Source: Eubacteriales bacterium
GTDB lineage: Bacteria; Bacillota; Clostridia; Oscillospirales; CAG-272
Direction: 5' to 3'
DNA length: 64,000 bases
NCBI GenBank assembly: GCA_045643285.1
Contig: JAZUKN010000057.1
Span: 10,076 to 74,075 of the forward strand
Translations under genes and position numbers: made by a program
Part shown: positions 2,737-60,530 of the stretch, piece after piece
Layout: each line of letters starts with the position of its first letter
How positions within the stretch are numbered: the first letter of the stretch is position 1
The notes under the pieces: generated by a model
Databases searched by the model: none
Told to the model about the DNA's origin: nothing
What the model saw: only the letters and a program-made list of their open reading frames with translations

Positions 2737-2775
2737 CTACGATATTTAACAGTTTACGGTAAATCGGAGGCAGAT

Positions 2776-4483: not shown

Positions 4484-5854
4484 TCAGACAAACAGAGAAA
4501 CGAGAAGTACGTTCAGGATTGCGGCAATACCGATAATGAGCGTACCGAGAGACTGTGTCTTGTAACCGTCCTGAGCCTTCATTTCACCGAAGTTGGTAAC
4601 AACCCAGAAGTAACTGTCGTTTGCGTGAGAAACAACCATTGCGCCTGCACCGATAGCAACAACTACGAGAGCTGCCTGTACGGGTGTGGTCCAGCCGAGA
4701 GTAGCCATCATCGGAGCGATGATACCTGCGGATGTTGTGATCGCAACTGTGGAAGAACCCTGAGCTGTCTTGAGGATAGCTGCAAGGAGGAACGGGAATA
4801 CGAGACCTATAACCTTGAGAGCGTCTGCACGTTCGCTGATGAACGCGATAAGCTCTGTGGAAGCGATGACCTTACCGAGAACGCCGCCTGCTGCCGTTAC
4901 GAACAGGATCGGACCGGTGGTCTTCAGTGTTTCGTTTGTGATGTCGTAGAATTCTTTGCCCTTCTTAGCCCAGAGGAGAAGAAGAACGCCGATGATAACG
5001 CCTACTGCGAGAGCGATGATAGGTGTGCCGAGGAATGTAATGATTGCAACCTTAAGACCTGCCATGGAGAATGCGCAGGAGAGGCCCATGAGGATGATCG
5101 GAACAACGATCGGAGCAAATGCAGCAAATCCGTTCGGGAGTTTGCCGTAGCTTGCTACGAGTTCTTCGTATGTCTGACCGATAGCTTCGTCGTTTGTGGG
5201 TTCGTCAGCTGCTTTAACCTTCTTGCCGATGATAACTGCGAAAATGCAGCCTGCGATGAGCGGGAGGATAGAGCAGATAGCGCCGATGAGCATTACCTGG
5301 AGAAGGTTAACGTCTGTGGAGCCGAGGCCTTCTGTGTAAAGTGTGTTAGCTGCAGCGATCGGGCCGGGTGTCGGCGGGATGAAGCAGTGGGAGATATAAA
5401 GACCCATGGAGAGAGCGACTGTGCAAGCTACGGAAGACTTGCGTGTTCTCTGAACGAGAGCCTTACGGATCGGGTTGAGAACTACGAAACCGGAGTCGCA
5501 GAATACGGGAATGGATACGATCCAGCCCATGATGAGCATTGCGATTTCGGGGTGGTTCTTGCCGACGAGTTTTACAACGCAGTCAGCCATTTTCAGAGCC
5601 GCGCCGGTCTTTTCAAGAAGAATACCGACGAGCGCACCGAGGATGATAACGATACCGATGCTTGTGAAGGTTCCGGAGAAGCCTGCACCGATGATGCCGG
5701 GGATAGCTGTGATGTCTTTAATTGCAAGGAGTGCGAGAATGAGCGAAACGCCCATAATGGAAAGGAACGGGTGGATCTTCCACTTCGAGATCGCAACGAT
5801 CATGAGAACGATTGCAAGCACGAAAGCAACAAGAAGCCAAATGCCTGTTAACAT
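4484..5854 (-). CDS. GntP-family organic-acid permease
   Basis: 456-aa polytopic membrane protein with GntP/DsdX-like sequence throughout. It lies immediately upstream of the glycerate kinase on the same strand. Confidence 0.88.
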   Translation of the reverse strand: MLTGIWLLVAFVLAIVLMIVAISKWKIHPFLSIMGVSLILALLAIKDITAIPGIIGAGFSGTFTSIGIVIILGALVGILLEKTGAALKMADCVVKLVGKNHPEIAMLIMGWIVSIPVFCDSGFVVLNPIRKALVQRTRKSSVACTVALSMGLYISHCFIPPTPGPIAAANTLYTEGLGSTDVNLLQVMLIGAICSILPLIAGCIFAVIIGKKVKAADEPTNDEAIGQTYEELVASYGKLPNGFAAFAPIVVPIILMGLSCAFSMAGLKVAIITFLGTPIIALAVGVIIGVLLLLWAKKGKEFYDITNETLKTTGPILFVTAAGGVLGKVIASTELIAFISERADALKVIGLVFPFLLAAILKTAQGSSTVAITTSAGIIAPMMATLGWTTPVQAALVVVAIGAGAMVVSHANDSYFWVVTNFGEMKAQDGYKTQSLGTLIIGIAAILNVLLVSLFV

Positions 5855-10973: not shown

Positions 10974-13208
10974 TCATGTATATCCGCGCGTTACGGAATG
11001 GACGTGATTTATCGAGCGCAGACGCGACATGATCGAATTGTAGTGTTCGATGTTCTTGCATCCGACTGTCAGCATTATGATGATGTCGTTCTCCGTCCGC
11101 TTTTTCGTATTGATCGAGAGAAGCGTCACTTTCATATCGGCTATCGCCATTGTGATATTGGCGATAAGCGTCATATCGTTCTCGGCATAGATCTGGAGCG
11201 CGACCTCGTACAGCGCACGTCCGTTTTCCTGCATAAAGTCGTCCTTGTCCCACTCCGCTCTGAGCCAGCGTTCGCGGAGCTGTTCGTTGTCCAAGCCCTT
11301 TACTGCATTCGGGCAGTCGCGCTTGTGGATAGACACGCCGTAACCCTTTGTGACAAAGCCGATAATATCGTCTCCCGGGAGAGGATTACAGCATTTTGCG
11401 AACTTGACTTCGCATCCGTACTCGCCGTCGACGATAACGCCGCCTGTGTGACGGACTCTCTTTGAGGTCTGCGTCTGTACCTGATCGGTGTCCGTGATGA
11501 CGGGCTGCTCTTCGGGCTTGACGATGCGCTCATATTCGGGCTTGAGTTTTGTCAGTACTTTTGAAACCGTCAGTCCGTTGTAACCGAGAGCATTATAGAG
11601 GTCGTCGGGATCGTTCATACCGAGCTTTGACGCAGCGGCGGCGACGATCTCCGCTTTCTGTGCTTCGGTGGGCTTTACGCGGAAACGTGAGAACTCTTTG
11701 TCTAATTCGTCCTTGCCGATCTTGATATTCTCAGGCCGTTTTTCTTTTTTGAACCACTGGCGTATCTTCGTTCTTGCTTCGCTTGTCTTGACGATAGCGA
11801 GCCAGTCTCTCGACGGCCCTTTCGACGAAGACGACGTGATTATCTCGACGATGTCGCCGGTCTGCGGCACCTTGTCGATCTGCGTTATCATTCCGTTTAT
11901 CTTCGCGCCGACCATTTTATTGCCGACTTCGGAGTGAATCGCGTAAGCAAAGTCAATGATAGTTGAGCCTTGCGGAAGTGCGATAACGTCGCCTTTCGGA
12001 GTGAATACGAACGTTTCGTCGGAGAAAATGTCTATCTTCAGGGCGTGCATGAAGTCTTCGGACTCGATGACGCCGTCCTCAACGTCGACGAGCTTCGACA
12101 CCCATTCGAGCTTTTTGTCGATCTCTTCCTTGCTCTTTGCACCCGACTTGTACTTCCAGTGCGCCGCGATACCGTACTCAGCGATATGGTGCATCTCGCG
12201 CGTTCTTATCTGAACTTCAAACGGGATACCGTCGCGTCCGATGACGGTGGTGTGAAGCGACTGGTACATATTCGGCTTAGGCGTTGAAATGTAATCCTTG
12301 AAGCGTCCGGGCATTGACTTGAACATTTCGTGGATGATACCGAGCGCGGTGTAGCATTCAAGCTCCGTATCGACGATTATTCTTATCGCATAGAAGTCGT
12401 ATATCTCATCGAACGACTTATCCTGTCTGAACATCTTGCGGTAGATCGAATAAACGGTCTTTACACGTCCTTCGAGCGTGTAGTGGATGTTGTATTCATC
12501 GAGCTTTGCGGACACGACTGCGCGCGTGTTTTCGATAAAATCGTGGTTCTGACCGTATTTGTCTTCGATATATTTCGACACCTGCGCGTGTCCTATCGGA
12601 TCGAGGTACGACAGTGCAAGGTTTTCAAGCTCCTGCTTTATCCTCTGCATACCGAGACGGTGAGCGAGCGGCGCGTAAACGTACATCGTTTCAAGAGCGG
12701 TGGCACGACGTTTTTCTTCTTTCTTCACGCCGAGAGTCTTCATATTGTGGAGTCTGTCGCAGAGCTTGATGAAGATGACGCGGATGTCCTTTGACATGGC
12801 AAGGAGCATCTTGCGGATGTTCTCGATGTTTTCTTCTTCCTTATCCTCGACGTTGATCGACTTCATTTTCGTCAGTCCGTCGACGAGCATTGCGACTTCA
12901 TCACCGAAGCGCGCGCGTATCTCGTCAAGGCTCGTCTTGTCGGCGCAGTCCTCGACTGTATCGTGCAGAAACGCCGCGCAGATAGAGTCGGTGTCAAGTC
13001 CGAGAGAGGTCACTATCTCCGCTACCGCTATGGGGTGGGAGATATACGGGTCTCCGCTGACTCTGAACTGCCCCTCGTGGAGCGACTTTGCGTAAAGGAA
13101 CGCTCTTTCGATCTTTTCGATGTCGTATCGGTGGCCGTTTGTCGAAAGAGTGTTTATAAGTCCGGCAATTTCCGGATATTCCGTGGAAGTAATTTCTGTG
13201 TTATCCAT
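10974..13208 (-). CDS. relA: Bifunctional (p)ppGpp synthetase/hydrolase RelA/SpoT
   Basis: 744 aa. It has an HD hydrolase region (HPIAVA, HDTVED), a synthetase region (YRSLHTT-like QSLHTTV), a TGS domain and a C-terminal ACT-like domain. Confidence 0.95.
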   Translation of the reverse strand: MDNTEITSTEYPEIAGLINTLSTNGHRYDIEKIERAFLYAKSLHEGQFRVSGDPYISHPIAVAEIVTSLGLDTDSICAAFLHDTVEDCADKTSLDEIRARFGDEVAMLVDGLTKMKSINVEDKEEENIENIRKMLLAMSKDIRVIFIKLCDRLHNMKTLGVKKEEKRRATALETMYVYAPLAHRLGMQRIKQELENLALSYLDPIGHAQVSKYIEDKYGQNHDFIENTRAVVSAKLDEYNIHYTLEGRVKTVYSIYRKMFRQDKSFDEIYDFYAIRIIVDTELECYTALGIIHEMFKSMPGRFKDYISTPKPNMYQSLHTTVIGRDGIPFEVQIRTREMHHIAEYGIAAHWKYKSGAKSKEEIDKKLEWVSKLVDVEDGVIESEDFMHALKIDIFSDETFVFTPKGDVIALPQGSTIIDFAYAIHSEVGNKMVGAKINGMITQIDKVPQTGDIVEIITSSSSKGPSRDWLAIVKTSEARTKIRQWFKKEKRPENIKIGKDELDKEFSRFRVKPTEAQKAEIVAAAASKLGMNDPDDLYNALGYNGLTVSKVLTKLKPEYERIVKPEEQPVITDTDQVQTQTSKRVRHTGGVIVDGEYGCEVKFAKCCNPLPGDDIIGFVTKGYGVSIHKRDCPNAVKGLDNEQLRERWLRAEWDKDDFMQENGRALYEVALQIYAENDMTLIANITMAIADMKVTLLSINTKKRTENDIIIMLTVGCKNIEHYNSIMSRLRSINHVHSVTRGYT

Positions 13209-13262: not shown

Positions 13263-15425
13263 TCAGCCGTTCAGCCGTTCTTTCAGTGACGAATAAAGGA
13301 CGGACGATTCAAGCGGAGTCTTTCCCCTCTGCTCTATGTATCTGAACGAATATATCTCCGCGTCCTCCGACTCTCTCAGATTCACGCCGAGGAGTCCAAG
13401 CTCGTCGAACACCGTAAGAATCAGTTTGAGTTTGACGTATCCGACGGGGATATTTGCCGATTTGAGAAGGTGGCGGAGCGCTCTCATGCTGAACACCTCG
13501 TGTTCCACCCGAAGTTCATGCTTCAGAATATTGTATACTGCGGCAAAATCGTCTCTCGTCGGTACGACAGAACGAAGCACGTCCGTACCGACGGAATCCG
13601 GCTCGTCTATCAGCTTTCTGTATAGCGCACGGTCGGCGTTCTCTTCGCGTGCTTTCGATAAAGAAAGCCGCACGTCCTTGACGATAAGCTGAACGCTCTT
13701 CTGGTCGCGGAATTCGTTCACGTCGAGCGAGAACATCACATCTACGGTGTCGCCGGGGTACAGGTCAAGCTCACCGAGAGAGAGGCGGAACACCATTGCG
13801 TTTACGTAATTCTGCCCTATCCTGAGCGTCAGACGGGTGTGCTTTCCGCCGCCGACAAGAGCGGTATCGTAAAGCGGTACGTCGTACATGACGAACACCG
13901 GCACCGGGTTAGACACGCCGTACGGCTCGAGCATATAAAGCTCGTTCGCCTGCTCTATCGTTATGTCGTCGGGAGCAAGCTCCATTTCAGCGTCAAGCGT
14001 CGGTTCGGTATCTACGTCAGTGAGATATTCGCGTGCGTATTCGTTGAGTTTTTTCTTGAAATCGTCGAGGTTCTCGCGCTTTATCGTAAGTCCGACGGCA
14101 AGCTCGTGACCGCCGAATTTTTCGAGCAGGTCTGAGCAGTTCTTCAGTGCGTCGACGAGGTTCAGCCCTTTTACGGATCGCCCCGAGCCTTTGCCGATCT
14201 CGCCGTTTTCCGAGCCTTCAAATGATATGAGGATCGACGGGCAGTTATACTTTTCTGTTATGCGCGACGCGACGATACCGATTATGCCGTGGTGCCATTT
14301 ATCGTCGTCGAGAACGATAACGGGATCGTTTTCAAAGTCGTGTTCCGCGGCGATTTTCGCGTACGCCTCTTCGACGATGTCGTTCTCGCCGGACTGACGC
14401 TCGCGGTTGATGTCGCAGAGCTGTTTTGCGATAGGTGCGGCAGTTTCGCGGTCCTTTGCGAGGAACAGCTCTACTGCGATAGACGCGGAGCTTATTCTGC
14501 CGGCGGCGTTTATTCTCGGCGCGACTGTAAATCCGATGAACGACGCCGTGATCTTGCGTTTTTTGCCGTATTTTGAATCCGCACTTGTTGCGTCGATAAG
14601 CTCGCACAGTCCCGGGCGTTCGGTATTTTCGATCAGTTCAAGACCGTACGAAACGATGAGACGGTTTTCGTCCTTTACGGGCATAACGTCTGCGATAGTG
14701 CCGATTGCAACAAGGTCGCCGTATTCGGCTGAGATGCGTCGCACGCAGTCTATCATGCTGTCATCGGGGTTCAGTACACTTTCAACGGCGCAAAGGAGCT
14801 TATACACCACTCCGACGCCTGCAAGCTCCTTGAAAGGATAATCACAGTCCGGTCTTCTCGGATTCACAACAGCGACGGCATCCGGAAGCTCGCTGTGACA
14901 TTCGTGGTGGTCAGTGACGATAACGTCCACGCCAAGCGATTTTGCGACTTCGACTTCTCCGACGGCTGTTATACCGGTGTCAACGGTTATGATGAGGCTG
15001 CATCCGTCCTCGGCGAGCTTGCGTATCGCGCCCTCGGAAACACCGTAGCCCTCGCCTGCCCTGCACGGGATGTAGTACGAAACGTCCGCGCCGTTTTTGC
15101 TCAGATAAAGGTACAGGCTGGAGACGGAAGTCACGCCGTCCACATCGTAATCGCCGAAGATAACGATTTTTTCGCCGCTTACCACCGCGTCAGCGACTCT
15201 TTCGGCGGCTTTCCGCATATCGCGCATCAGAAACGGGTCGTGGAGGATCTCTTCGGTCTTTCCGAGGAACGATTTTGCGCCGTCGACTGTAGTATACCCT
15301 CGGTTGACGAGCAGCATCGCGGTCGTCAGCGAAATGCCCAGCGCCGACGACAGCTCGTGCGCTTCCCGGCAGTCGAGAACGGCGTTATGGGGCGCCGCGA
15401 CTGCCCATTTTTTCTCTTTTCTCAT
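13263..15425 (-). CDS. recJ: Single-stranded-DNA-specific exonuclease RecJ
   Basis: DHH motifs DYDVDGVTS and VTDHHE plus DHHA1 GGHELAVG. I chose the ATG at 15425 (purine-rich AAAGAGAGA upstream) over the ORF-track start at 15464, which has no RBS. Confidence 0.9.
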   Translation of the reverse strand: MRKEKKWAVAAPHNAVLDCREAHELSSALGISLTTAMLLVNRGYTTVDGAKSFLGKTEEILHDPFLMRDMRKAAERVADAVVSGEKIVIFGDYDVDGVTSVSSLYLYLSKNGADVSYYIPCRAGEGYGVSEGAIRKLAEDGCSLIITVDTGITAVGEVEVAKSLGVDVIVTDHHECHSELPDAVAVVNPRRPDCDYPFKELAGVGVVYKLLCAVESVLNPDDSMIDCVRRISAEYGDLVAIGTIADVMPVKDENRLIVSYGLELIENTERPGLCELIDATSADSKYGKKRKITASFIGFTVAPRINAAGRISSASIAVELFLAKDRETAAPIAKQLCDINRERQSGENDIVEEAYAKIAAEHDFENDPVIVLDDDKWHHGIIGIVASRITEKYNCPSILISFEGSENGEIGKGSGRSVKGLNLVDALKNCSDLLEKFGGHELAVGLTIKRENLDDFKKKLNEYAREYLTDVDTEPTLDAEMELAPDDITIEQANELYMLEPYGVSNPVPVFVMYDVPLYDTALVGGGKHTRLTLRIGQNYVNAMVFRLSLGELDLYPGDTVDVMFSLDVNEFRDQKSVQLIVKDVRLSLSKAREENADRALYRKLIDEPDSVGTDVLRSVVPTRDDFAAVYNILKHELRVEHEVFSMRALRHLLKSANIPVGYVKLKLILTVFDELGLLGVNLRESEDAEIYSFRYIEQRGKTPLESSVLYSSLKERLNG

Positions 15426-15480
15426 AGTATTGTCTCTCTTTATATAAATAAAAATAATAATCAAAGTTAAAACTATACAC

Positions 15481-16160
15481 TTGCACGAAGTGCAAACATC
15501 ATTTTTCTTTTACTTGCACAAACCTCATTAAGACAAAAGGAAGAAAACGTTTCACGTTTTCAATTTCATCTTTCTGTCCTGTTCGTTTACGAACGGGCGG
15601 ACGGCGCACAAGCCGAGTTCACTCCGTGAACTCGTCGAGATGCTCCGCATCTCGGTGAGTCACTTTCGCGGACTCCTTGCCAATCCACACGACTTAGGGG
15701 GAAGGTTGCTTCGCTCTATTCACGCCTACCGACTTCGTAAACGAAGTCGTCGAGATGCTCCGCATCTCGGTTGAACCCCTTTGTTTCAGAGTAAATGCAA
15801 CTCAATTATTTATCTTACCATTTAAAAACGACTACGTTTTACTTCATAATGAGCGTCAGCGCGCTATTATTATCGATCTAAATCCTCTACACCGTCGCAC
15901 TCGCTTTGTGACAAAGGGGAGTCCAGAGGGGGAATGAGCTTGCTCCTTCCCCCTTTGGCGGGATGATTCACAAGAAGGCCGCGTCGGTCTTCTTGTGCGC
16001 CCCGCGCGTAGCGGAAAACCGATACTAAACGTAGAGTTTGTGCAGATTCCGCGGGAGGGGAAACCCCTCCCCTACGGTGTATGTGGTGAAAAAAGTGTGA
16101 TTACGCGCGTAGCCGCGAAGAAAACTGAATTTTGAAAACGTCCCCGACGTTTTCTACCTT
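15481..16160. repeat. Double copy of the mosaic hairpin-module repeat (left arm 15513..15812 forward, core 15813..15895, right arm 15896..16160 inverted)
   Basis: Perfect hairpins lie at 15481..15495, 15543..15561, 15578..15597, 15615..15633, 15636..15654, 15730..15749, 15751..15769, 15969..15997, 16053..16071 and 16134..16154. The region is homologous by eye to 44920..45560 and to single copies elsewhere. Confidence 0.9.
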
Positions 16161-16178
16161 ACACCACCGTAGTGGAAA

Positions 16179-20560: not shown

Positions 20561-20841
20561 CTCACGGCTTCGCACGAAATGTCATTTTCCACCGTAGGGC
20601 GGGGGTTTACTCCCGCCGCCGAAAGACTTGAGTTTACTTTATATAGGCAAAAGGTAGAAAACGTCTGCGACGTTTTCAGATTTATTTTTTGTCCTGTTCG
20701 CTTGCGAACGGGCGGACATCGGACAATTCATCCAAACCACACGTTTGGTGTCGTCTTTGTCCTACGCGGACGGCGCACAAGAGCATCGAATCATGGAGTT
20801 CACGAAGAGAACTCGGCTTGTCCGCCGTCCGCGTAAGACAA
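20561..20841 (+). repeat. Single forward copy of the mosaic hairpin-module repeat (truncated at the GRE promoter)
   Basis: Hairpins lie at 20598..20617, 20657..20677, 20693..20712, 20732..20748 and 20797..20813. A long outer inverted repeat gtcctacgcggacggcg / cgccgtccgcgtaagac spans 20759..20839. Confidence 0.85.
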
Positions 20842-20844
20842 ACC

Positions 20845-20873
20845 TTGACATATCCCCCAAAAACGGATATAAT
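20845..20873 (+). promoter_or_regulatory. Consensus sigma-A promoter for the glycyl-radical enzyme operon
   Basis: TTGACA (20845..20850), 17-nt spacer, TATAAT (20868..20873). A second TATAAT lies at 20881..20886. Confidence 0.7.
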
Positions 20874-23904: not shown

Positions 23905-23911
23905 GGTATTC

Positions 23912-23982
23912 ATACGCGAAGCGTATATCATCCGTGAAACGGATATCATCGCGCAGCGATATCATCCGCGAATGCGGATATC
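23912..23982. repeat. Tandem array of four mini-hairpins separated by exactly ATC
   Basis: Hairpins are atacgc-gaa-gcgtat (23912..23926), atccgt-gaa-acggat (23930..23944), atcgc-gca-gcgat (23948..23960) and atccgc-gaat-gcggat (23964..23979). The array starts 8 nt after the GRE stop codon. Confidence 0.85.
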
Positions 23983-23995
23983 ATTATTCTTTAAC

Positions 23996-24535
23996 TTGCA
24001 CAAGCCACGTGGCTTCGCACGAAATACAAATCCACCTCCGGTAGGGGACGGTGTCCTCGACGTCCCGCGGATTTAGGCAAACCTCACTGCTACGCACGAA
24101 AAATCATTCTATACCGTAGGGGAGGGGTTTCCCCTCCCGCGGATTTGCACAAACCTCACAAAGGAAAAGGAAGAAAACGTCGGGAACGTTTTCAAATAAT
24201 CTATTTGTCCTGTTCGTTTACGAACGAGCGGACAGGCGCACGATTTTTCCAAACCGCACGTTTGGCTTCGGTGTGTCCTGTTCGCTTGCGAACGGGCGGA
24301 CGGCGGACAAGCCGAGTTCACTCCGTGAACTCAGTGAACGTCGCCTCCTTGTCAATCTACCCGCTTAGGGGGAAGGGACTTCGTCCTATTCACGCCTCCC
24401 GACTTCGTAAACGAAGTCGTCGAGATGCTTCGCATCTCGGTCTGACTCCCCTTTGTTGCAAAGCGAATGCAAATCTTTTGTTCGCTTTATCAAATTATTC
24501 ATTATTCATTCTTCATTATTCATTATTCATTTCAG
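23996..24535 (+). repeat. Forward copy of the mosaic hairpin-module repeat with an internally duplicated module, ending in AT-rich heptamer repeats
   Basis: Hairpins lie at 24002..24015, 24045..24066, 24120..24138, 24173..24193, 24209..24228, 24249..24265, 24277..24296, 24314..24332, 24400..24419 and 24421..24439. Five attattc-type heptamers occupy 24494..24528. It matches 15513..15812 closely by eye. Confidence 0.9.
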
Positions 24536-32747: not shown

Positions 32748-33347
32748 TTATTTCTTCACTGTCCGTATGATCTCTTCCGCGATCTCGACAATTCTCAGTT
32801 TAACTTTCACTTTTCCGTCGGATTTCGTTATCATTCTGTACTCCGCAGGCGTGAGCGACACTGCCGAATATTCGTCGGTCCTCGCAAATCTCATACACAC
32901 CGCCGGAAACAGCACGCACCACCAGTTATGCCCCTCTCCCTCTCCGAGAACGACTCTGAGAGAATCGTATTCACCGGACGGAAGCACAGTATCCCCGTAA
33001 TCGCGCCGCGGATATGTCTCGCGCCCGAGCAGCACCGTCACCGCGCAGTCTCCGCCGTTCTCCGAGACGCATTCTTCAGCCGCATCTTTGATTTCTTCCG
33101 TTACCATACCGACAGCCGCGTATGCCTCATCCTCGGTCGTACAGTTCTCCACTGCTCCCGTCACTACTTCAAGCACAGCGTCGCGCACCTTTAGTTTAAG
33201 CGACTGATCTTCGTCCGAGTCAGACTCCGCTATGACGTGAAGCCGCAGTACGTCGTCGTATATATTGCCCTCGCCGCAAATCGGAAAAACAGACACCAGA
33301 ACAGCCGCCACAAGCACAGACGACACAAAAGAAAGAAGATATTTCAT
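32748..33347 (-). CDS. spoIIR: Stage II sporulation protein R
   Basis: 199 aa with a signal/anchor sequence followed by LRLHVIAESDSDEDQSLKLKVRDAVL, the hallmark SpoIIR block. Confidence 0.88.
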   Translation of the reverse strand: MKYLLSFVSSVLVAAVLVSVFPICGEGNIYDDVLRLHVIAESDSDEDQSLKLKVRDAVLEVVTGAVENCTTEDEAYAAVGMVTEEIKDAAEECVSENGGDCAVTVLLGRETYPRRDYGDTVLPSGEYDSLRVVLGEGEGHNWWCVLFPAVCMRFARTDEYSAVSLTPAEYRMITKSDGKVKVKLRIVEIAEEIIRTVKK

Positions 33348-38410: not shown

Positions 38411-38441
38411 TATAAATCATTTTAACTTATCGGTGGTTTTT

Positions 38442-40538
38442 ATGGAAACTGTAACGGAATACTTCGGCTTGCTGACATTCAACGACAAAGCGATGCGCGA
38501 ATATCTGCCCGAAGAAATATACGTCTCACTGAAAAAGACGATAGACGAAGGCAAGCGGCTCAACGCAACTATCGCAGACGCAGTCGCAAACGCAATGAAA
38601 GACTGGGCTATCGAGCGCGGATGCACACACTTCACGCACTGGTTCCAGCCGCTCACCGGCATCACCGCCGAAAAGCACGACAGCTTCATCACACCCGTAA
38701 GCGACGGCACTGTTATTATGGAGTTTTCGGGAAAAGAGCTTGTGAGCGGTGAATCCGATGCGTCGTCGTTCCCGTCGGGCGGACTGCGCGCGACATTTGA
38801 AGCGAGAGGCTACACCGCGTGGGACCCGACATCGTACGCTTTTATCAAGGACAAGACGCTATGCATCCCGACGGCGTTCTGCTCGTTCGGCGGAGAGGCG
38901 CTCGACAAGAAAACTCCCCTGCTCCGCTCAATGGAGGCGATCAACACAGAGGCACTCCGCATTCTGAAGCTGTTCGATCCCGAAACGGACGTAGAATGTG
39001 TCCGCACGAGCGTGGGAGCCGAGCAGGAATATTTTCTCGTACCGAAAGAGCTGTACGACAAGCGGCTCGATCTGATAATCACGGGGCGCACGCTGTTCGG
39101 TGCAAAGCCGCCGAAAGGACAGGAGCTTGACGATCACTACTTCGGCGCAATAAAGCCGCGTATCGAAGCGTACATGAAAGAGCTTGACACGGAGCTTTGG
39201 AAGCTCGGGATCCCGGCGAAGACCGAACACAACGAAACGGCACCGGCTCAGCACGAGCTTGCACCCGTATTCTGCCAGGCGAATATTGCGACGGATCACA
39301 ACCAGCTCATGATGGAGATCATGAAAAAGGTCGCAAAGCGGCACGGGCTTGTATGTCTTCTGCACTCAAAGCCGTTCGCAGGCGTAAACGGCTCCGGCAA
39401 GCACAACAACTGGTCGATCTCAACAAACACCGGCGTGAATCTCCTGAAGCCGGGTGAAACACCGCACGAGAACGCGCAGTTTCTTCTGTTCCTCTGCGCT
39501 GTCATCAAGGCGGTCGACGATTATCAGGATCTTCTCCGTATCAGTGCGGCGAATGCCGGAAACGATCACCGTCTCGGCGCGTCCGAAGCACCGCCGGCAA
39601 TAGTCTCGATTTTCCTCGGAGACGAGCTGACAGCCGTCCTCGAAGCACTTGAAACGGATTCTCACTACGACGCACGTGAAAAAACACAGCTCACGCTCGG
39701 CGTTGACGTTCTGCCGAAATTCCCGAAGGACAACACAGACAGAAACAGAACTTCCCCGTTCGCGTTCACCGGAAACAAATTTGAGTTCCGTATGCTCGGT
39801 GCCGCCGACTCGATAGCCGACTGCAATACCGTGCTGAACACTGCGGTTGCGGAATCACTCAGAGAGTTTGCGGACATCCTCGAAAAAGCCGACGACTTCG
39901 GAAAAGCCCTGAACCTGCTCATCCGCGACACCGTAAAGGCGCACAAGAGGATCATTTTCAACGGCAACGGCTACGGCGAAGAATGGGTAAAAGAGGCAAC
40001 AGAGGTCCGCGGACTGATGAATCTGCCGACGACACCGGACGCACTGCCGCACTTTATTGACGAAAAGAACATACGGCTCTTTACCTCACACGGTGTGTTC
40101 ACGGAAGCCGAAATGCGCTCACGGTATGAGATAATGCTCGAAAACTACACGAAGACCGTCCGCATCGAAGCCGCGACGATGGTCGATATGGTATACAAGC
40201 AGATTTTGCCTGCAACCACGGCATACGCAAAAGAGATCGGCGAATGTGCGGCGGCAAAGAAGTCCGTCGGTATCAACAATGTTGCATACGAGACGGAAAT
40301 GCTCGGCAAGCTGTCGTCTCTTTCGGAGATGATCTACAAAAACGCCGAAAAGCTCCGCGACGCGACGGATGAAACGTCGGACGTAAAGGACACCGCTTCC
40401 CGTGCAGTCTGCGTAAAGGAAAAGGTCATCCCTGCGATGAAATCTCTCCGCGCGGTCTCGGACGAAGCCGAATTCATCACGGCGGAAAAATTCTGGCAGT
40501 ACCCGAACTACGCGGCACTTATGTACGCACTGCAATAA
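38442..40538 (+). CDS. glnN: Glutamine synthetase type III
   Basis: About 698 aa from the ATG at 38442. Blocks FTHWFQPLTG, HNETAPAQHELAP and NGSGKHNNWS are typical of GSIII. Confidence 0.93.
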   Translation: METVTEYFGLLTFNDKAMREYLPEEIYVSLKKTIDEGKRLNATIADAVANAMKDWAIERGCTHFTHWFQPLTGITAEKHDSFITPVSDGTVIMEFSGKELVSGESDASSFPSGGLRATFEARGYTAWDPTSYAFIKDKTLCIPTAFCSFGGEALDKKTPLLRSMEAINTEALRILKLFDPETDVECVRTSVGAEQEYFLVPKELYDKRLDLIITGRTLFGAKPPKGQELDDHYFGAIKPRIEAYMKELDTELWKLGIPAKTEHNETAPAQHELAPVFCQANIATDHNQLMMEIMKKVAKRHGLVCLLHSKPFAGVNGSGKHNNWSISTNTGVNLLKPGETPHENAQFLLFLCAVIKAVDDYQDLLRISAANAGNDHRLGASEAPPAIVSIFLGDELTAVLEALETDSHYDAREKTQLTLGVDVLPKFPKDNTDRNRTSPFAFTGNKFEFRMLGAADSIADCNTVLNTAVAESLREFADILEKADDFGKALNLLIRDTVKAHKRIIFNGNGYGEEWVKEATEVRGLMNLPTTPDALPHFIDEKNIRLFTSHGVFTEAEMRSRYEIMLENYTKTVRIEAATMVDMVYKQILPATTAYAKEIGECAAAKKSVGINNVAYETEMLGKLSSLSEMIYKNAEKLRDATDETSDVKDTASRAVCVKEKVIPAMKSLRAVSDEAEFITAEKFWQYPNYAALMYALQ

Positions 40539-40547
40539 AAGTGAAGA

Positions 40548-40628
40548 TGTGACTTCGTCACAGTGAAGTTTGCCTTCGGCAAGTGATGTTCGGCTTCGCC
40601 GAATGATGTTTTCATACTTCGTATGAAA
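40548..40628. repeat. Tandem array of four mini-hairpins directly after the glnN stop
   Basis: Hairpins are tgtgac-ttc-gtcaca (40548..40562), ttgcc-ttc-ggcaa (40570..40582), ttcggc-ttc-gccgaa (40589..40603) and tttcatac-ttc-gtatgaaa (40610..40628), separated by gtgaagt / gtgatg / tgatgt. A module-B-like hairpin follows at 40638..40666. Confidence 0.85.
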
Positions 40629-40680
40629 GTTAAGGAAGAAAAAACGTAACACGGTTACGTTTTTTCAAATAAACAAAACA

Positions 40681-40712
40681 AAAAATCTGTATCGGAAGAT
40701 ACAGATTTTTTT
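40681..40712. terminator. Bidirectional intrinsic terminator between convergent glnN and M23 peptidase genes
   Basis: aaaaatctgtatc-ggaa-gatacagattttt, a 13-bp stem including the A and T runs. Confidence 0.85.
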
Positions 40713-40740
40713 ACATTAACTGCGCGGAGCACATCATAAC

Positions 40741-40801
40741 TTGCCGAAGGCAATCATCACTTCACGAAGTGAATCATCACTGCTCACTGTGACGTAGTCA
40801 C
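40741..40801. repeat. Mirror-image mini-hairpin array after the M23 peptidase gene stop
   Basis: Hairpins are ttgcc-gaa-ggcaa (40741..40753), ttcac-gaa-gtgaa (40761..40773) and gtgac-gta-gtcac (40789..40801), with tcatcac spacers. The first is the exact reverse complement of 40570..40582. Confidence 0.85.
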
Positions 40802-40807
40802 TTTTCC

Positions 40808-41614
40808 TCAGTCTTCGACTAAATCCTTGAGGAACACTACCTCGACGTATTCCGCAGGGTCTTTCGCCTCTCCGTTTACCGAAAGCTCAAAGTGAACGTG
40901 GTCTTCTTCGCCGCTTTCGATCAGTGCGGTGTCGCCCGATACGCCGATAACGTCACCTTTTGCAACAGTGTCACCGACTGCGTGCATCGAAAGCGTCTCT
41001 TCGGCAAGTCCCTTATATTTCGTCTCGGAACCTCCGGAGTGGGAAACCGCAACCGTCACGCCCATCATCGGATCGTCGTAAACTTCGCTTATCACGCCGT
41101 CAGCCGCCGCGCAGACCGGTGTTCCTGCCGATGCCGCAAAATCAAGTCCGCCATGCGTGCGGTAGTCGTTCATCGTGTACGAAAAAACGGGAGTCGCAAG
41201 GCTCGCGCCCTTTATAACGATAGAATCTACCGGTGCGATGAAGCTCGGCAATACGTCTTCTGCAATTACTTCAACCGTTTCTTCCGGCTCTGCGTCCGTC
41301 TTTTCAGTGGGCTTTGTCTCTTTCGACGGCTTAGACGGCTCGTCCGGCTTTACTTCGGGTGTTGTCTTGCCTTTTTCGTCGGTCTTGTTCTCTTTTTCGG
41401 TCTTTACGTCCGTTTCGGGAGTCTGAGTATCTGTGTTTTCGGTCTTGTTTTCTTCCGACTGCTCCGTCTGCTTCTCAAGCGGAGGATTTTCTTCCGATTT
41501 TCTCTTGTTCGCGCTTCCCGTAACACCGACGAGAACGGCGGACGACGCGAGGATCACCACAAGTGCTCCGAGGAGGAGTTTATTCTGTTTGTTTACTGAC
41601 GTATTGTTTGCCAT
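40808..41614 (-). CDS. M23-family metallopeptidase with N-terminal membrane anchor (possibly SpoIIQ-like)
   Basis: The ATG at 41614 has an AAAGG-type RBS. The protein has a TM helix LLLGALVVILASSAVLV, a low-complexity E/K/T linker, and a LytM domain with HGGLDF and HVHFEL. The ORF-track extension to 41854 has no support. Confidence 0.82.
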   Translation of the reverse strand: MANNTSVNKQNKLLLGALVVILASSAVLVGVTGSANKRKSEENPPLEKQTEQSEENKTENTDTQTPETDVKTEKENKTDEKGKTTPEVKPDEPSKPSKETKPTEKTDAEPEETVEVIAEDVLPSFIAPVDSIVIKGASLATPVFSYTMNDYRTHGGLDFAASAGTPVCAAADGVISEVYDDPMMGVTVAVSHSGGSETKYKGLAEETLSMHAVGDTVAKGDVIGVSGDTALIESGEEDHVHFELSVNGEAKDPAEYVEVVFLKDLVED

Positions 41615-41776
41615 ATCTTTACCTTTCTTTTTGATGCGTATTTGTCTCACGCCTTTATTTTTGCCACGGGAAGATTTTTTATACAGCAGAAAAATATTTT
41701 TCACCGAAAAGGTTGTACTTCCCTGCTTTTCCTCATAATATATCGTACAGTCACGCCTGTCCGATAACCGTGCGCT

Positions 41777-41804
41777 TGATTTTTTCTCCCCGATATGATA
41801 GAAT
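41777..41804 (+). promoter_or_regulatory. Putative sigma-A promoter (extended -10) for the GHL10-amidase lipoprotein gene
   Basis: TTGATT (41777..41782), 16-nt spacer ending TGa, TAGAAT (41799..41804). Confidence 0.5.
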
Positions 41805-41853
41805 ATTGTCGTAAAACCGCGATACTCGTGATACCCCACGAAAGGATAACACA

Positions 41854-44853
41854 ATGAAAAAGCGCTTACAGCTTATCACAACGCTTGTTCTTTTGATAAT
41901 AATGACAGCTTGCCTCTCGTCCTGCACAAGCGACAGAGACTTTTCTGCTCCACGTCTTCCGGCTGACGGTACTGTGATCCCGCTCACAAAAATAATCAAC
42001 CCAGACTCAGAAGTCCGCGGCGTGTGGATAGCGTCCGTCTTCAATATCGACTACCCGTCTTCTGCCGACCTTTCGGCTGAAGATTTACGCGCGGAGATAG
42101 ACGAGATCATCTCGACCTGCAAACAAAGCGGCGTGAATACTATATATTTCCAGGTCCGCCCGTCGTGCGACGCACTGTACGAGAGCGACATTTTCCCCGT
42201 GTCGAAATATCTTTCGTCGTCGGGTGAGCTGACTTTCGATCCGCTCGGATATATAGTCGAGACGGCGCACCGCGAGAACATCTTCGTTCACGCATGGGTC
42301 AATCCTCTCCGCGTAACTGCCGACGGAAGCACTCTCGATTCTCTCCCGGATTCTTCTCCGGCAAAGGCGCATCCCGAATGGGTGGTCGAATACTCCGGAA
42401 AGCTCTATTTTGACGCAGGTATCCCCGAAGTACGCACGCTCATCTCCGACGGGGTAAGCGAGATCGTCAGAAAATACGACGTCGACGGAGTGGTTTTCGA
42501 CGACTATTTCTACCCCTACCCGGTATACGGAGACAACAAAAAAATCCTTGATTTTGACGACGGCGACACATACGCCGTACACTGCGGTAATTTTACAAAT
42601 GTAGAAGATTGGCGGCGTGAGAACGTCAACGAAATGATACGCGCCTGCTATGAAGCCGTTCATGAAGCGGACAAAGACTGCGTGTTCGGCGTTGCACCGT
42701 TCGGCGTATGGCAGAACAACAACGGCAAGAACGGCGGAAGCGACACCGCAAACCTTGAAGCGTACAGTTCACTCTACTGCGACGCGCTCGCGTGGGTAAA
42801 GGGCGGATATATCGACTTCCTCTCGCCGCAGATTTATTGGGAATTTACAAACAAAACCTCGCCGTATGATGTAGTTCTTCGCTGGTGGAACGCCAAGCTC
42901 GACGGAACGGGTGTAAAGCTGATCGTCTCCCACGCGCTTCATCAGTACAACGGCGACTGGAAATACCCTGAGGGCGAGATCACGGAGCAGATCGTCTACT
43001 CGCGCTCCGAAAAGCAGTACTACGGAAGCGCCTGCTACGGCTACAGCGTGCTCGAAAATAACGTCCGCGGCGCGTCTGACGAGCTTAAAAAAGTATGGTC
43101 GGGCGAGATCGTTTACACCGGCATTTCGTCGACCGGCTCGCCTGTCACGTTCTCATCCCCCGAAAACGATTCCGTCACATATAACGACCGCACGTTCCTC
43201 CTCGGGCAGTGCGATCCGGCTTATCCGCTCACAATGGGCGGCGAGCCGATCAGCATGACGAAAAGCGGCTATTTCAGCACATATCTGCATCTCACGGAGG
43301 GCGAGAACGTTTTCGTCTTCACGCAGAACGGGAAAGAATACGAATACAAAATCACATACAAGACCTCATACGACGGAGTCACGGAGAAAACCGGCGTGTA
43401 TTCCGACACGGTGGACGCCGTGAACATTTATCCAATGACCGACACGGCGACATCCGACGGCACTATGTGGGTGCAGTGCTACGCGCCGAACGGGAGCACG
43501 GTGACGGCGTCCGTCGGAGGTATCTCAACAAAACTGAAACGGCTCACTGATCCCGTACCCGGCGGAAAGGGTTATGCCTGTGTGCTGTACGGTGCGGAGA
43601 TCTCGCTTCCGTCCTCCCCGGACGGAGTTGTGACCGACTGCGGAAACATCATTCTGACAGTCGAGCACAAGGACGGCACAGCGACGAAAACCGGTGGGCG
43701 CGTGCGCATCCTCGGCGAAGGTGCGAGCTTGTGCGTCCGTGCGAAACAGGACTACACCGAGTTGAAAATCACCGAAAACAGCTTATATTACAACGACTAC
43801 ACCGTTCAGTCCGCCGGAATGACCGACTACGCCGACGCGCTCTCTGACGGATTCTATCACCTCCGCATGGGCGGTTATGTCTACGAAAGCGCCATGGAAG
43901 AGATCGACGATCCGAAATTGTGCGACAAATGTAGAATTGAGTCGGTGAAGGTGTCGGACGACGGCGAGCGGACAAGTATAGTCTTCCGTGCGACTGACAG
44001 TATGCCATACAACGGATGTATCGACGGAGATTCGTTCGTCGTGACGTTCTACAACGCGGACGGGGAAAACTCAGCAGACGCGGAGATCGGCGAGAATCCG
44101 TTTTTTGAGTCGTGCGACGTGATACGACTCGAAAAAAAGGTTAGATATTCGTTCCCGCTCTATGACACGGACAACTTCTATGGGTTTGATCTCATGTACG
44201 GCGACGGCGAGATCGTCGTGACACTGCGCGATCCCGTGAAGATAGACGCGACGGCGGAAAAACCGCTTGAGGGAAAAATCATCGTACTTGACGCAGGTCA
44301 CGGAGGAGAAGACAGCGGTGCGGTCGGCATGAAAACTCTCGGCGGACGGGCTGACGAAAAGGACGTAAACCTTGCAGTCGTTCTTGCGGCGGAGAAAAAG
44401 CTCTCGTCTCTCGGCGCGGACGTGAGGCTAACGAGAAGCGACGACAGCACGTTTTCACTTGTCGGGAACGACGGGCGGATGAAGTATCTCGAAGCGCTTG
44501 AGCCGGACTTGTGCGTGTCCGTTCATCAGAACTCGGACGAGTACACGAAAGACATACGAAGCACGCACGGCACGCTCGGGCTATGGTGCATGGACGGCGG
44601 AACGATGCTCGCGGAATGTGTATCGAAATCGGTGGCGGAGGCGCTCGGGCGAATGTGGCAAGATTCGCGCTATCAGATGCTTGCGATGTGCCGCAATCCG
44701 AAATTCCCGGCGGCACTGATCGAGGTCGGATATATGACGAGCGCGGAGGAATACGAGCTGATGACGACGGAGGTAGGGGTAAACCGCGCGGCAGACGGGA
44801 TAGTCGACGGGATACTCGAATGGTACGCACGGCAGGAGAAGTACATAAAATAA
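41854..44853 (+). CDS. Large lipoprotein fusing a glycosyl-hydrolase-like 10 (GHL10/DUF187) domain and a C-terminal N-acetylmuramoyl-L-alanine amidase (Amidase_3)
   Basis: 999 aa with a signal peptide and Cys lipobox (IIMTACLSSC). A GHL10-like block RGVWIASVFNIDYPS is followed by a central beta-rich region and the C-terminal IIVLDAGHGGEDSGAVG amidase_3 motif. Confidence 0.85.
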   Translation: MKKRLQLITTLVLLIIMTACLSSCTSDRDFSAPRLPADGTVIPLTKIINPDSEVRGVWIASVFNIDYPSSADLSAEDLRAEIDEIISTCKQSGVNTIYFQVRPSCDALYESDIFPVSKYLSSSGELTFDPLGYIVETAHRENIFVHAWVNPLRVTADGSTLDSLPDSSPAKAHPEWVVEYSGKLYFDAGIPEVRTLISDGVSEIVRKYDVDGVVFDDYFYPYPVYGDNKKILDFDDGDTYAVHCGNFTNVEDWRRENVNEMIRACYEAVHEADKDCVFGVAPFGVWQNNNGKNGGSDTANLEAYSSLYCDALAWVKGGYIDFLSPQIYWEFTNKTSPYDVVLRWWNAKLDGTGVKLIVSHALHQYNGDWKYPEGEITEQIVYSRSEKQYYGSACYGYSVLENNVRGASDELKKVWSGEIVYTGISSTGSPVTFSSPENDSVTYNDRTFLLGQCDPAYPLTMGGEPISMTKSGYFSTYLHLTEGENVFVFTQNGKEYEYKITYKTSYDGVTEKTGVYSDTVDAVNIYPMTDTATSDGTMWVQCYAPNGSTVTASVGGISTKLKRLTDPVPGGKGYACVLYGAEISLPSSPDGVVTDCGNIILTVEHKDGTATKTGGRVRILGEGASLCVRAKQDYTELKITENSLYYNDYTVQSAGMTDYADALSDGFYHLRMGGYVYESAMEEIDDPKLCDKCRIESVKVSDDGERTSIVFRATDSMPYNGCIDGDSFVVTFYNADGENSADAEIGENPFFESCDVIRLEKKVRYSFPLYDTDNFYGFDLMYGDGEIVVTLRDPVKIDATAEKPLEGKIIVLDAGHGGEDSGAVGMKTLGGRADEKDVNLAVVLAAEKKLSSLGADVRLTRSDDSTFSLVGNDGRMKYLEALEPDLCVSVHQNSDEYTKDIRSTHGTLGLWCMDGGTMLAECVSKSVAEALGRMWQDSRYQMLAMCRNPKFPAALIEVGYMTSAEEYELMTTEVGVNRAADGIVDGILEWYARQEKYIK

Positions 44854-44895: not shown

Positions 44896-44919
44896 GTATT
44901 CCCTTTTTTCTTTGGCAAA

Positions 44920-45560
44920 GAAAGAGAGAAAACGTCAGAGACGTTTTTATTATCCTAACTTGTTTACAAGTGGGCAGACGGGTATTTATCCAAACCGCAC
45001 GTTTGGATTCGTTTTTCCGCTACGCGCGGGGGCGCACAAGAGCGTACCGCGACGCTCTTGTGAATCACCGCGCTTAGGGGGAAGGTCGCTGCGCTCTATT
45101 CCCCCTAAGAACCCCTTTGTTGCAAAGTAATTGCAAATCTATTATTATCTAATCATTTATTAACGATTATGTTATACTTTATAATGAGCGGCAGCGCGCT
45201 ATTATTAACGATCTAAATCCTCGAAAACGTCGCACTCGCTTTGTGACAAGGGAGATTCCAACCGAGATGCGGAGCATCTCGACGACTTCGTTTACGAAGT
45301 CGGTAGGCGTGAATTGACGAAGTCCTTCCCCCTTTGGTTCGGTGATTGACAAGAGCGTCGAATAACGCTCTTGTCCGCCGTCCGCCGCGTATACATATGC
45401 CGGACAAAAAGATGAATTTGAAAACGTCACCGACGTTTTCTACCTTTTGCCGATGTAAAGAGTGTGCAGATCGTTCGGCGGCAGGAGTAACGCGTATACA
45501 TACGCACTGCCCTACGGCATACAGGTGAAGTTCACGCGAAGCCGCAAAATTTGTGCAAAG
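44920..45560. repeat. Second double copy of the mosaic hairpin-module repeat (left arm 44920..45140 forward, core 45141..45230, right arm 45231..45560 inverted)
   Basis: Hairpins lie at 44928..44948, 44959..44970, 44990..45006, 45035..45062, 45073..45109, 45263..45281, 45283..45302, 45348..45375, 45420..45440 and 45492..45505. The core segment 45181..45222 matches 15846..15887 at 40 of 42 positions. Confidence 0.9.
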
Positions 45561-51726: not shown

Positions 51727-51880
51727 ATTTGCATTCACTTTGTAATAAAGGGGAGTCCAGAGGGGGAATGAGCTTGCTCCTTCCCCCTTTGGCGGGTAGA
51801 TTGACAAGAAGGTGACGGTCACCTTCTTGTCCGCCCCGCGCGTAGCGGAAACCATGAAATCGAAAACACGAAGTGTTTTC
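51727..51880 (-). repeat. Single inverted copy of the mosaic hairpin-module repeat (short subtype)
   Basis: Contains gacaagaaggtgac-g-gtcaccttcttgtc (51803..51831) and gaaaacac-gaa-gtgttttc (51862..51880). It nearly matches 15905..16015 by eye. Confidence 0.88.
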
Positions 51881-51965
51881 TTCCCCTTTACTCAAAAAAT
51901 GAATTACAACAAAACAAAAATAGAAAAATAAAAAAAGCATTTTTTACGAAAGGACAGATAAAACC

Positions 51966-60261: not shown

Positions 60262-60530
60262 GGCTACGCACGAGGTATCACACACCTGTATACCGTAGGG
60301 GAGGGGTTTCCCCTCCCGCGGAACGACCTTCACATACTTCACATCGGCATAAGGTAGAAAACGTCGGGGACGTTTTCAAATTATTTGTTTTGTCCTACGC
60401 GGACGGCGGACAAGAAGGTGACCGTCACCTTCTTGTCAATCTACCCGCCAAAGGGGGAAGGTCGCTACGCCCACTTCCCACACTGGACTCCCCTTTGATG
60501 CAAAGTAAATGCGAGACTTTCGTTCACTCT
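60262..60530 (+). repeat. Single forward copy of the mosaic hairpin-module repeat (short subtype), followed by AT-rich heptamers
   Basis: Contains gggagggg-ttt-cccctccc (60299..60317), gaaaacgtc-ggg-gacgttttc (60357..60377) and gacaagaaggtgac-c-gtcaccttcttgtc (60409..60437). attattc-type repeats lie at 60543..60560. Confidence 0.88.

Follow-up and report, generated by a model that had tools for sequence, protein, structure and literature searches.

Tandem mini-hairpin arrays, probably of the Gut-1 family, at gene 3′ ends of a clostridial chromosome

Introduction

Gut-1 is an orphan family of small tandem hairpins. Weinberg et al. (2010, PMC2864571), who described it from 43 human-gut metagenome sequences and named neither a host nor a function, took it for an RNA with no cis-regulatory role. 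In its consensus, (G)UGAAAU sequences separate three hairpins whose stems vary and whose loops are of the UUC(G) type; some members of the seed alignment carry GUGAUAU linkers instead. No later literature on the family was found in the searchable library, and the family is absent from a preprint of 2026 that deals with intergenic features. Here we describe arrays of mini-hairpins in 64,000 nt of DNA from a Eubacteriales bacterium (assembly GCA_045643285.1, contig JAZUKN010000057.1, positions 10,076 to 74,075 of the forward strand), a stretch referred to below as the window. Two of the arrays, A and B, mirror each other between glnN, encoding a type III glutamine synthetase, and a convergent M23 peptidase gene, and a third, array C, lies elsewhere in the window. 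To judge from their sequence, they are very probably Gut-1-type hairpin arrays, a divergent member of the known orphan family and not new in kind.

Repetitive extragenic palindromic (REP) elements, together with bacterial interspersed mosaic elements (BIMEs) and REPINs, are palindromes found at gene 3′ ends or within operons, often as inverted pairs and with a lineage-specific distribution; the individual REP is an imperfect palindrome of 20–40 nt that carries a GTAG motif and occurs in many near-identical copies (PMC3116915, PMC3337134). Gut-1 arrays resemble them in these aspects of placement, pairing and distribution, and in having a short conserved motif 5′ of the hairpin. They differ in that their hairpins are only 11–19 nt long with stems of 4–8 bp, are nearly all different, and stand in direct tandem within each arm. 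REPIN arms are complementary, whereas the paired arms of Gut-1 share no stems beyond chance, arrays A and B of the window being a partly paralogous exception. On the evidence below, Gut-1 arrays are read as polar intergenic repeats much like REP elements, serving as an RNA 3′-end module whose palindromes are kept by template switching; we put the probability of this reading at about 0.45.

The glnN–M23 locus

The glnN gene (38433..40538, + strand; Pfam GSIII_N, Gln-synt_C and Gln-synt_C-ter; start coordinate from a home-made gene caller) encodes a product 100% identical to protein P0001 of the protein database. Its stop codon ends at 40538, and array A (40541..40635, sense strand +) begins 2 nt beyond. 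The array consists of four hairpins with perfect stems and TTC loops, namely TGTGAC-ttc-GTCACA (40548-62), TTGCC-ttc-GGCAA (40570-82), TTCGGC-ttc-GCCGAA (40589-603) and TTTCATAC-ttc-GTATGAAA (40610-28), which are preceded in turn by GTGAAGA, GTGAAGT, GTGATG and TGATGT and followed by a terminal GTTAAGG, an instance of the GTT..GG motif common to the Gut-1 family. All four are predicted by folding, both as RNA and as DNA, and the stems carry G.U extensions.

The M23 peptidase gene (40808..41854, − strand; Pfam Peptidase_M23; stop 40808-40810) converges on glnN, and array B (40731..40807, sense strand −) starts 6 nt after its stop. In + strand letters, its three perfect hairpins read TTGCC-gaa-GGCAA (40741-53), TTCAC-gaa-GTGAA (40761-73) and GTGAC-gta-GTCAC (40789-801), with TCATCAC as linker; in the sense direction the array runs GTGAC-tac-GTCAC(A), GTGAGCA, GTGATGA, TTCAC-ttc-GTGAA, GTGATGA, TTGCC-ttc-GGCAA and a terminal GTTATGA. 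A first-pass annotation of the window, made from the letters alone, had listed these seven hairpins with 3-nt loops, their GTGAAGT/GTGATG/TGATGT and TCATCAC linkers, and the recurrence of the 40570 hairpin as its exact reverse complement at 40741. All of this is borne out, and Pfam agrees with its naming of glnN and the M23 peptidase.

Arrays A and B can be aligned unit by unit, and array B is evidently an inverted paralogue of array A. Because the arms align in this way, the region 40539-40810 folds as a 270-nt quasi-palindrome (minimum free energy −118.5 kcal/mol, z −13.4). The window contains two tandem runs of at least three perfect hairpins with loops of 3 nt, against a mean of 0.02 and a maximum of 1 in 100 dinucleotide shuffles. 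The linker GUGAUGA of the − strand (40754-40760, 40774-40780) fits RUGAUGA, the consensus for box C in C/D RNAs, and this accounts for weak archaeal and eukaryotic snoRNA matches in a relaxed Rfam search. The GA dinucleotides beside each stem could, speculatively, form tandem sheared G.A pairs.

Two terminator-like hairpins with A-run/T-run flanks separate the arrays. The first (40638..40666; GAAAAAACGTAAC-acg-GTTACGTTTTTTC) is of the bidirectional type with an A-run and a T-run, and the second (40680..40712; AAAAAATCTGTATC-ggaa-GATACAGATTTTTT(T)) is the bidirectional terminator of the first-pass annotation. The latter had been taken as the single terminator shared by both genes; the hairpin is real, but it is accompanied by the one at 40638-40666, and a shared central terminator is peculiar to this locus. 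As had been proposed, each convergent mRNA would carry an array in the same UUC-loop sense ahead of a terminator. The mini-hairpins resemble intrinsic terminators in their location at gene ends and in being hairpins on the transcript, but they lack a U-tract and have GTGAWRT linkers instead, A-run/T-run flanks being confined to the separate canonical terminators at 40638-66 and 40680-712. Elsewhere in the family, intrinsic terminators stand before the array, at tRNA genes, or after it.

Identity with Gut-1

At the Gut-1 gathering threshold of 50 bits, a search of the window with Rfam gives no matches, because all three arrays score below this cut-off. With a relaxed threshold, Gut-1 RNA (RF01706) is matched by array C at 41.4 bits (−), array A at 35.1 bits (+) and array B at 14.3 bits (−), and the Rfam alignment agrees with the window arrays column by column, placing three hairpins between GUGAAAU linkers. 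Array C (23905..23986, sense strand −) lies directly 3′ of a gene for a pyruvate formate-lyase (PFL)-like glycyl-radical enzyme (stop 23904). Its hairpins at 23912-26, 23930-44, 23948-60 and 23964-79 are joined by (AT)GAT(AT) linkers; on the + strand the loops read GAA, GAA, GCA and GAAT and the spacers ATC or ATCAT. The three arrays hold four (A), three (B) and four (C) tandem hairpins, with GTGAAGT, GTGATGT, GTGATGA or ATGATAT as linkers. Both array C and the identity with Gut-1 had escaped the first-pass annotation.

An independent covariance model, R1, was built from 11 two-unit sequences of metagenome arrays only and run over the whole window, on both strands and with no filters. Its only significant matches in the 64 kb are array A (51.5 bits, E 6.7e-10), array B (34.1 bits, E 8e-6) and array C (23.2 bits, E 0.003), the next-best match having an E-value of 2.9. 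Among the metagenome loci behind R1, 18 of 19 exceed the Rfam Gut-1 cut-off (52–80 bits), with paired arms detected on opposite strands.

The window arrays share with Gut-1 the tandem small hairpins, the variable stems, the C-UNC-G loops and the conserved (G)UGAWAU linkers, and likewise follow stop codons or terminators. Their mirrored arrangement is already present in the seed, where members BAAZ01000095 and BAAZ01025322 each have a forward array and, about 30 nt on, an inverted array between convergent stop codons. Three features set the window apart: linkers that read GUGAUGU, GUGAAGU, GUGAUGA or AUGAUAU and not GUGAAAU, with scores of 41, 35 and 14 bits against a threshold of 50; the two terminators that part arms A and B, while family arms usually abut at 25–31 nt; and the paralogy of arms A and B, atypical of the family. 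The hosts of Gut-1 appear to be uncultured Clostridia of gut-type metagenomes, and the relatives of the window GlnN are ENA/Logan assemblies and entries labelled 'MAG: Clostridia/Ruminococcaceae'. For a family orphaned since 2010 and previously seen only in gut metagenomes, the window supplies 64 kb of chromosomal surroundings, from a spore-forming Clostridia lineage, for one divergent member.

Structure of the repeat unit

The family was surveyed with the pattern GTGAWRT-NNNN-CTKCG-NNNN-GTGAWRT, which matched 11 viral loci, most of them real arrays, and at least 120 metagenome loci, several on contigs titled as human-gut metagenome assemblies. Family figures rest on the first 120 metagenome loci listed, dereplicated approximately into 87 clusters, with genes called by a crude home-made codon-usage caller and ARAGORN. 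The detector for arrays looked for successive TGAWRW linkers that enclose a hairpin; 127 were found in the 881 kb of listed loci and none in 296 kb of unrelated genomes. Other searches were less discriminating. A linker-only pattern (three GTGAWAT) proved unspecific in viral contigs, where a handful of about 160 loci were real, and was replaced by the pattern above; a permissive hairpin-chain detector with 4-bp stems was swamped by noise, and a BLAST search of plasmids and phages with one seed array returned nothing useful.

The unit is a perfect palindrome of 4–8 bp with a T-N-C loop of 3 nt, sometimes 4 nt, closed by C:G, and a linker of 6–7 nt, (G/A)TGAWRW. Two to seven units follow head to tail in an array, whose start lies about 0–30 nt past a stop codon or else just behind the terminator of a tRNA gene, and whose last hairpin is followed by GTT..GG. 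The terminal hairpin with GTT..G(G) is found in 16 of 30 arrays, for example as GTTAAGGA, which is identical to the end of array A. Among 184 dereplicated units, 140 have a 3-nt loop and 171 a C:G closing pair, the most frequent loops being TTC (53), TGC (36), TTT (13), TAC (6) and TCC (6); their stems comprise 1022 Watson-Crick pairs, 7 G.U, 3 A.C and 10 others. As many as 161 of the hairpin sequences are distinct, and the hairpins are conserved as structures, not as sequences. When linkers were the sole criterion for choosing arrays, 233 of the 239 segments between linkers proved to be hairpins, and these contain 11 G.U and 21 A.C pairs. In short, the hairpins are essentially perfect DNA palindromes. 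The window units conform, their sense-strand loops being TTC eight times and TAC, TGC and ATTC once each, all closed by C:G.

Two other interpretations of the hairpins were considered and set aside. Reading the loops as UNCG tetraloops is rejected, as the shifted register leaves 1–2 bp in most units (worked by hand), and G.U wobble is not supported as a marker of the RNA strand, being family-wide no commoner than A.C.

On the strand opposite the linkers, 101 of the 140 triloops read G-N-A. Since the search pattern demanded one CTKCG unit per locus, the loops were recounted with the pattern-selected units removed. Of the remaining 132 units, 89 have triloops, with T-N-C in 50 against G-N-A in 3 on the sense strand, and C:G closes 120. 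The C-GNA-G reading of the opposite strand in the first-pass annotation is right family-wide, since both the recounted loop polarity and the C:G closure hold; in the window, at the sequence level, this applies to 10 of 11 loops. Most Gut-1 units, reading C-GNA-G opposite the linker GTGAWRT, resemble in this the d(GCGNAGC) mini-hairpins of DNA with their C:G-closed 3-nt loop. In nature, stable DNA mini-hairpins are found in the origins of single-stranded DNA phages, in ssiA and in the hairpin promoters used by the virion RNA polymerase of phage N4 (PMC13037366). These are single hairpins in single-stranded contexts, whereas Gut-1 units stand in arrays of two to seven in the double-stranded DNA of chromosomes and phages, at gene 3′ ends.

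Position and polarity of the arrays

All but one of the 127 arrays are intergenic, and they are flanked by gene 3′ ends 74 times and gene 5′ ends 36 times. Between co-directional genes, single arrays are in the sense orientation in 22 cases and antisense in 5 (dereplicated; binomial p ~0.0015); in convergent spacers, 11 of 13 single arrays are nearer their sense gene, and divergent spacers hold a single array only once. Arrays adjoin tRNA 3′ ends in 22 clusters and tRNA 5′ ends in none. After protein-coding genes, the first linker follows the stop codon at a median distance of about 21 nt; in 30 such cases a terminator never intervenes between stop codon and array, and in 8 it lies within 110 nt after the array. 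The arrays are polar, with linker, loop and terminal motif all directional; they are tied to the 3′ flank of genes and mostly stand in sense and within the transcribed region. The first-pass annotation had staked its proposal on non-random placement with respect to gene ends, and by these counts the placement is indeed not random.

The upstream genes are of unrelated function, encoding phage portal proteins, MatE, MutS, MutL, SpoVAD, FtsX and DUF6034, among which no shared functional theme was found. Nor was any neighbour protein family enriched in 148 genes beside 84 metagenome arrays (159 Pfam families). The hosts are spore-forming Clostridia and their phages, and in phage operons arrays sit in sense between cistrons. 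At several loci (L079, L171, L205, L206, L210, L292, L311), consecutive genes of phage-like operons, for portal and other structural proteins, are each followed by a sense array; in L206 there is, in addition, a match to the phage motif GP20-b of Rfam (4684-4743).

The upstream stop codon often lies within or abuts the first linker, as in cagTGAagt, ttaTGAtaa and ttgTGAGTGATAT, with examples at L206 7849, L289 8643, L311 3399/2561 and 40536-40547 of the window. Because a TGA stands in every linker and the units recur at intervals not divisible by three, an array presents stop codons in all three sense-strand frames.

Mirror pairs are no peculiarity of the window but the rule, and paired arrays nearly always point head to head. 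Head-to-head pairs outnumber tail-to-tail pairs by 25 to 2 in metagenome and by 4 to 0 in viral loci, and 17 of them are distinct; they occur in convergent, co-directional and divergent gene contexts, with arms mostly 25–31 nt apart and the terminator, where present, before the array. An origin by inverted duplication is rejected for the family, since in the 17 pairs only 1 of 35 stems is common to both arms, while shuffling the arm pairings gives an expectation of 2.6. Where a pair stands beside a tRNA gene, an inverted repeat of 11–13 nt encloses the tRNA-proximal arm, GAAATAAATCCnn ... nnGGATTTATTTC, whose variable part (CCC, CCAC, CCACCC) covaries between loci (metagenome and viral: L233 6540-6720, L243 1366-1590, L273, L293, L327, L330, L109). 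Pairing of this repeat and formation of the first local hairpin exclude each other, so that the repeat may mark an alternative fold over a longer range, or else be a terminal inverted repeat.

Such pairs bear on the class 'Gene; sRNA' to which Rfam assigns the family. A free-standing small RNA (sRNA) gene would have its own promoter, end at a bidirectional terminator and act as a protein sponge or scaffold. The pairs that adjoin tRNA genes lend themselves to this, for their distal arm points to a symmetric A-run/T-run terminator, and a pair folded as one RNA has strong long-range structure (L243: −88.3 kcal/mol, z −9.6). Weinberg et al. also judged Gut-1 to be an RNA and not cis-regulatory. 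The sponge RNAs CsrB and RsmZ likewise combine repeated short hairpins and conserved loop and linker motifs with freely varying stems; they differ in being free-standing genes with a promoter and a conserved position, whose GGA loops serve CsrA. Gut-1 arrays, by contrast, abut stop codons and are not conserved at orthologous sites as typical sRNA genes are. Most single arrays start 0–30 nt after a stop codon, and therefore leave no room for a promoter; for arrays A and B the distance is 2 and 6 nt, other arrays lie between operon cistrons, and no conserved promoter or partner gene was found. An independent sRNA gene is accordingly an improbable explanation.

As far as the accessible literature shows, the start at stop codons, the sense polarity, the head-to-head pairs, the restriction to tRNA 3′ ends, the polar T-N-C palindromes, the GTT..GG end and the hosts and phages all go beyond the original description of Gut-1. 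Together, these regularities make the function of the family experimentally approachable.

A proposed REP-like module at the 3′ ends of transcripts

The most likely account of the array is a REP-like 3′-end module transcribed with the upstream gene. At the locus studied here, glnN and the M23 gene each have one array in their own sense orientation, with a bidirectional terminator after each, and each array would be co-transcribed with the gene that precedes it. The resulting RNA would form stacked small stable hairpins separated by single-stranded GUGAWRU linkers. REPs of E. coli are transcribed and stabilise mRNAs; in the same manner, the stack could constitute a 3′-end or intercistronic barrier that stops 3′ exonucleases, while the linkers could provide single-stranded cleavage or binding sites and make the array a processing platform. 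The stems would stay perfect palindromes through intrastrand template switching in the DNA, a concerted evolution of the two arms, and not through selection on the RNA, and arrays would grow and spread by duplication of units and of whole arrays. For the barrier or processing mechanism itself, our analysis gives chances that are appreciable though somewhat short of even. If it holds, abundant Clostridia of the gut, and their phages too, would possess in the arrays a post-transcriptional device of general use.

Several observations weigh against this account. Array C is antisense to its upstream PFL-like gene, and head-to-head pairs between co-directional genes place one of their arms antisense to local transcription. 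The arrays of tRNA genes lie behind a terminator in four of four cases, where they would be transcribed only by read-through. The stems show no tolerance of G.U (7–11 G.U against 3–21 A.C in more than 1000 pairs), which is unusual if they are selected only as RNA, and folding energies are similar on either strand, as RNA or as DNA, so that no strand is favoured. Lastly, C:G-closed triloops are the optimum for DNA, as C-GNA-G, and not for RNA (PMC13037366, PMC3201870).

Points of this kind are what an element acting at the DNA level, a true analogue of REPs, would draw on. Such an element would form strand-specific hairpins in single-stranded DNA, with C-GNA-G on the template strand, or small cruciforms, and be recognised by a Y1/RAYT-like (REP-associated tyrosine) transposase, a primase, a topoisomerase or gyrase, or another hairpin-specific protein; its placement at gene ends would then stem from a preference for certain targets or from a part played in the supercoiling that transcription drives. 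The almost pure Watson-Crick stems, with G.U not in excess over A.C, agree with it, and the near-absence of G.U pairs would be compatible with a role as GNA mini-hairpins of single-stranded DNA. The 3-nt loops in 67–76% of units, the C:G closure in 91–93% and the G-N-A bias of one strand (50 vs 3) follow the rule for extraordinarily stable DNA mini-hairpins, a GNA triloop closed by C:G (PMC13037366; for closing-pair dependence, PMC3201870). Head-to-head pairing (17 distinct pairs vs 2 tail-to-tail) whatever the orientation of the flanking genes, lineage-specific occurrence with duplication, the quasi-palindrome at 40539-40810 and a loop inversion in the second terminator, described below, point in the same direction.

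Against these stand the tight, sense-oriented start about 20 nt past stop codons, which points to a link with transcription or translation, and the 161 of 184 distinct hairpins, which are not near-identical as the copies of REPs and REPINs are (PMC3116915). The first-pass annotation had also looked to Y1/RAYT transposases, and here it finds no support: a single-copy RAYT gene accompanies REPs, whereas no Y1/RAYT or other transposase, and no integrase or phage gene, occurs among the ~50 window genes, and no transposase is found in the 25 most frequent of the 159 Pfam families in the 148 array-neighbour genes. Stems of 5 bp are moreover too short for stable cruciforms in duplex DNA. By textbook fork geometry, a gene transcribed in the direction of replication would have its GNA strand as the template for leading-strand synthesis, a strand that is rarely single-stranded, which also counts against a DNA element. 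On balance, a DNA-level function, although the main rival, appears rather unlikely; should the mini-hairpins prove to work as DNA, the arrays would make up a REP-like system of a new kind.

A further reading covers both forms. Gut-1 would then be no ordinary small RNA but a previously unrecognised REP-like system of Clostridia and their phages, composed of polar arrays of perfect mini-palindromes in dyad pairs at gene and tRNA 3′ ends and served by a dedicated protein partner; its active form would be strand-specific, either as C-GNA-G DNA hairpins read by a hairpin-specific protein or as an RNA module that both insulates and processes transcripts arriving from both directions. This reading is somewhat unlikely.

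Turnover at the glnN site and elsewhere

Gut-1 arrays turn over quickly between relatives. A contig of the same species (L164), with a 100% identical GlnN, contains array A and both terminators, and differs from the window in two places: in unit 3 a T-A pair has become T.G, and the loop of terminator 2 is inverted, from GGAA (window 40694-40697) to TTCC (L164 2969-2972), while its stem is identical. The inversion is a typical footprint of intrastrand template switching across a hairpin. In relatives whose GlnN is 82–88% identical (L165, L001, L002, L166), the array is absent from the orthologous spacer. That of L165 holds only a 30-nt terminator and that of L001 spans 845 bp full of a second repeat family (see below), whereas L002 and L166 have a co-directional M23 gene and a simple terminator. 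A search of 76 kb of related loci with R1 found no array except that of L164. The glnN–M23 locus is itself otherwise ordinary, a convergent spacer with a lineage-specific repeat.

Duplication is visible at other loci: L171 has a duplicated block, and L311 carries two paralogous arrays. Among homologous arrays that follow different tRNA genes, the stems differ by compensatory changes and the loops evolve fastest. The quick gain and loss seen among close relatives, variable unit numbers, the tandem block duplication of L171 and the preference for 3′ spacers over promoter-bearing divergent ones might all be expected of a neutral by-product, that is, palindrome-rich junk that arises from slippage, duplication and template switching and persists in tolerant places past genes and terminators. 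Such junk would hardly keep its linker, its loop polarity (50:3), its C:G closure and its terminal GTT..GG across unrelated loci, hosts and phages, or be retained in compact phage operons; 97% of units are still hairpins, with compensatory changes, and pairing is strictly head-to-head and not tail-to-tail. We regard neutrality as quite improbable, and the RNA 3′-end module kept by template switching remains the preferred reading.

Other repeats and genes of the window

The first-pass annotation had noted two isolated units of the same kind as the arrays. The one at 15481..15502 (−), reading ATGATGT-TTGCAC-ttc-GTGCAA, is a plausible solitary unit on sequence grounds; its linker ATGATGT is also used in array A, and a single unit is too short for statistics. 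The other, at 51862-51880 (GAAAACAC-gaa-GTGTTTTC), belongs instead to a separate, multi-copy module with a GAAAACG hairpin. Sites of this module are found at 15543, 16132, 20657, 24175, 44927 and 51862, and it may be a dispersed bidirectional terminator or an operator-like palindrome.

This second repeat family, unrelated to Gut-1, is modular, multi-copy and intergenic, with copies of about 100–300 nt, often in inverted pairs, in at least six intergenic regions. Copies lie at 15510-16170, 20650-20850, 23990-24470, 44900-45450, 51730-51885 and 60349-60497 of the window, and at 860-1160, 5130-5540, 12140-12900 and 17080-17690 of the relative L001. Its hairpin modules include aaggaaGAAAACGT-loop-ACGTTTTCaaat, GTCCGCCCGTTCG-TAAA-CGAACAGGAC and CGAGTTCAC-tcc-GTGAACTCG, with CGAGATGC-tcc-GCATCTCG, GACTTCG-TAAA-CGAAGTC and CCTTCCCCCTAAG as further modules. 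The family has no Rfam match. A scan of genome contigs for its sequence CGAGATGCTNCGCATCTCGG gave 41 loci, nearly all chance matches in high-GC genomes, and the one 'Eubacteriales' metagenome-assembled genome (MAG) among them is not otherwise similar to the window. Two Gut-1-like elements, array C and the unit at 15481, directly adjoin copies of this family. The terminator-like hairpin at 40638..40666, with its flanks aaggaa...caaat, looks like a longer member of the GAAAACG-hairpin module and resembles the aaggaaGAAAACGT..ACGTTTTCaaat module (compared at 15543, 20657 and 24175).

The genes of the window include those for ATP synthase (326-3042), RelA/SpoT (10974-13208), RecJ (13263-15464) and the sporulation protein SpoIIR (32748-33347), and the window is ordinary housekeeping chromosome of a spore-forming Clostridia lineage.

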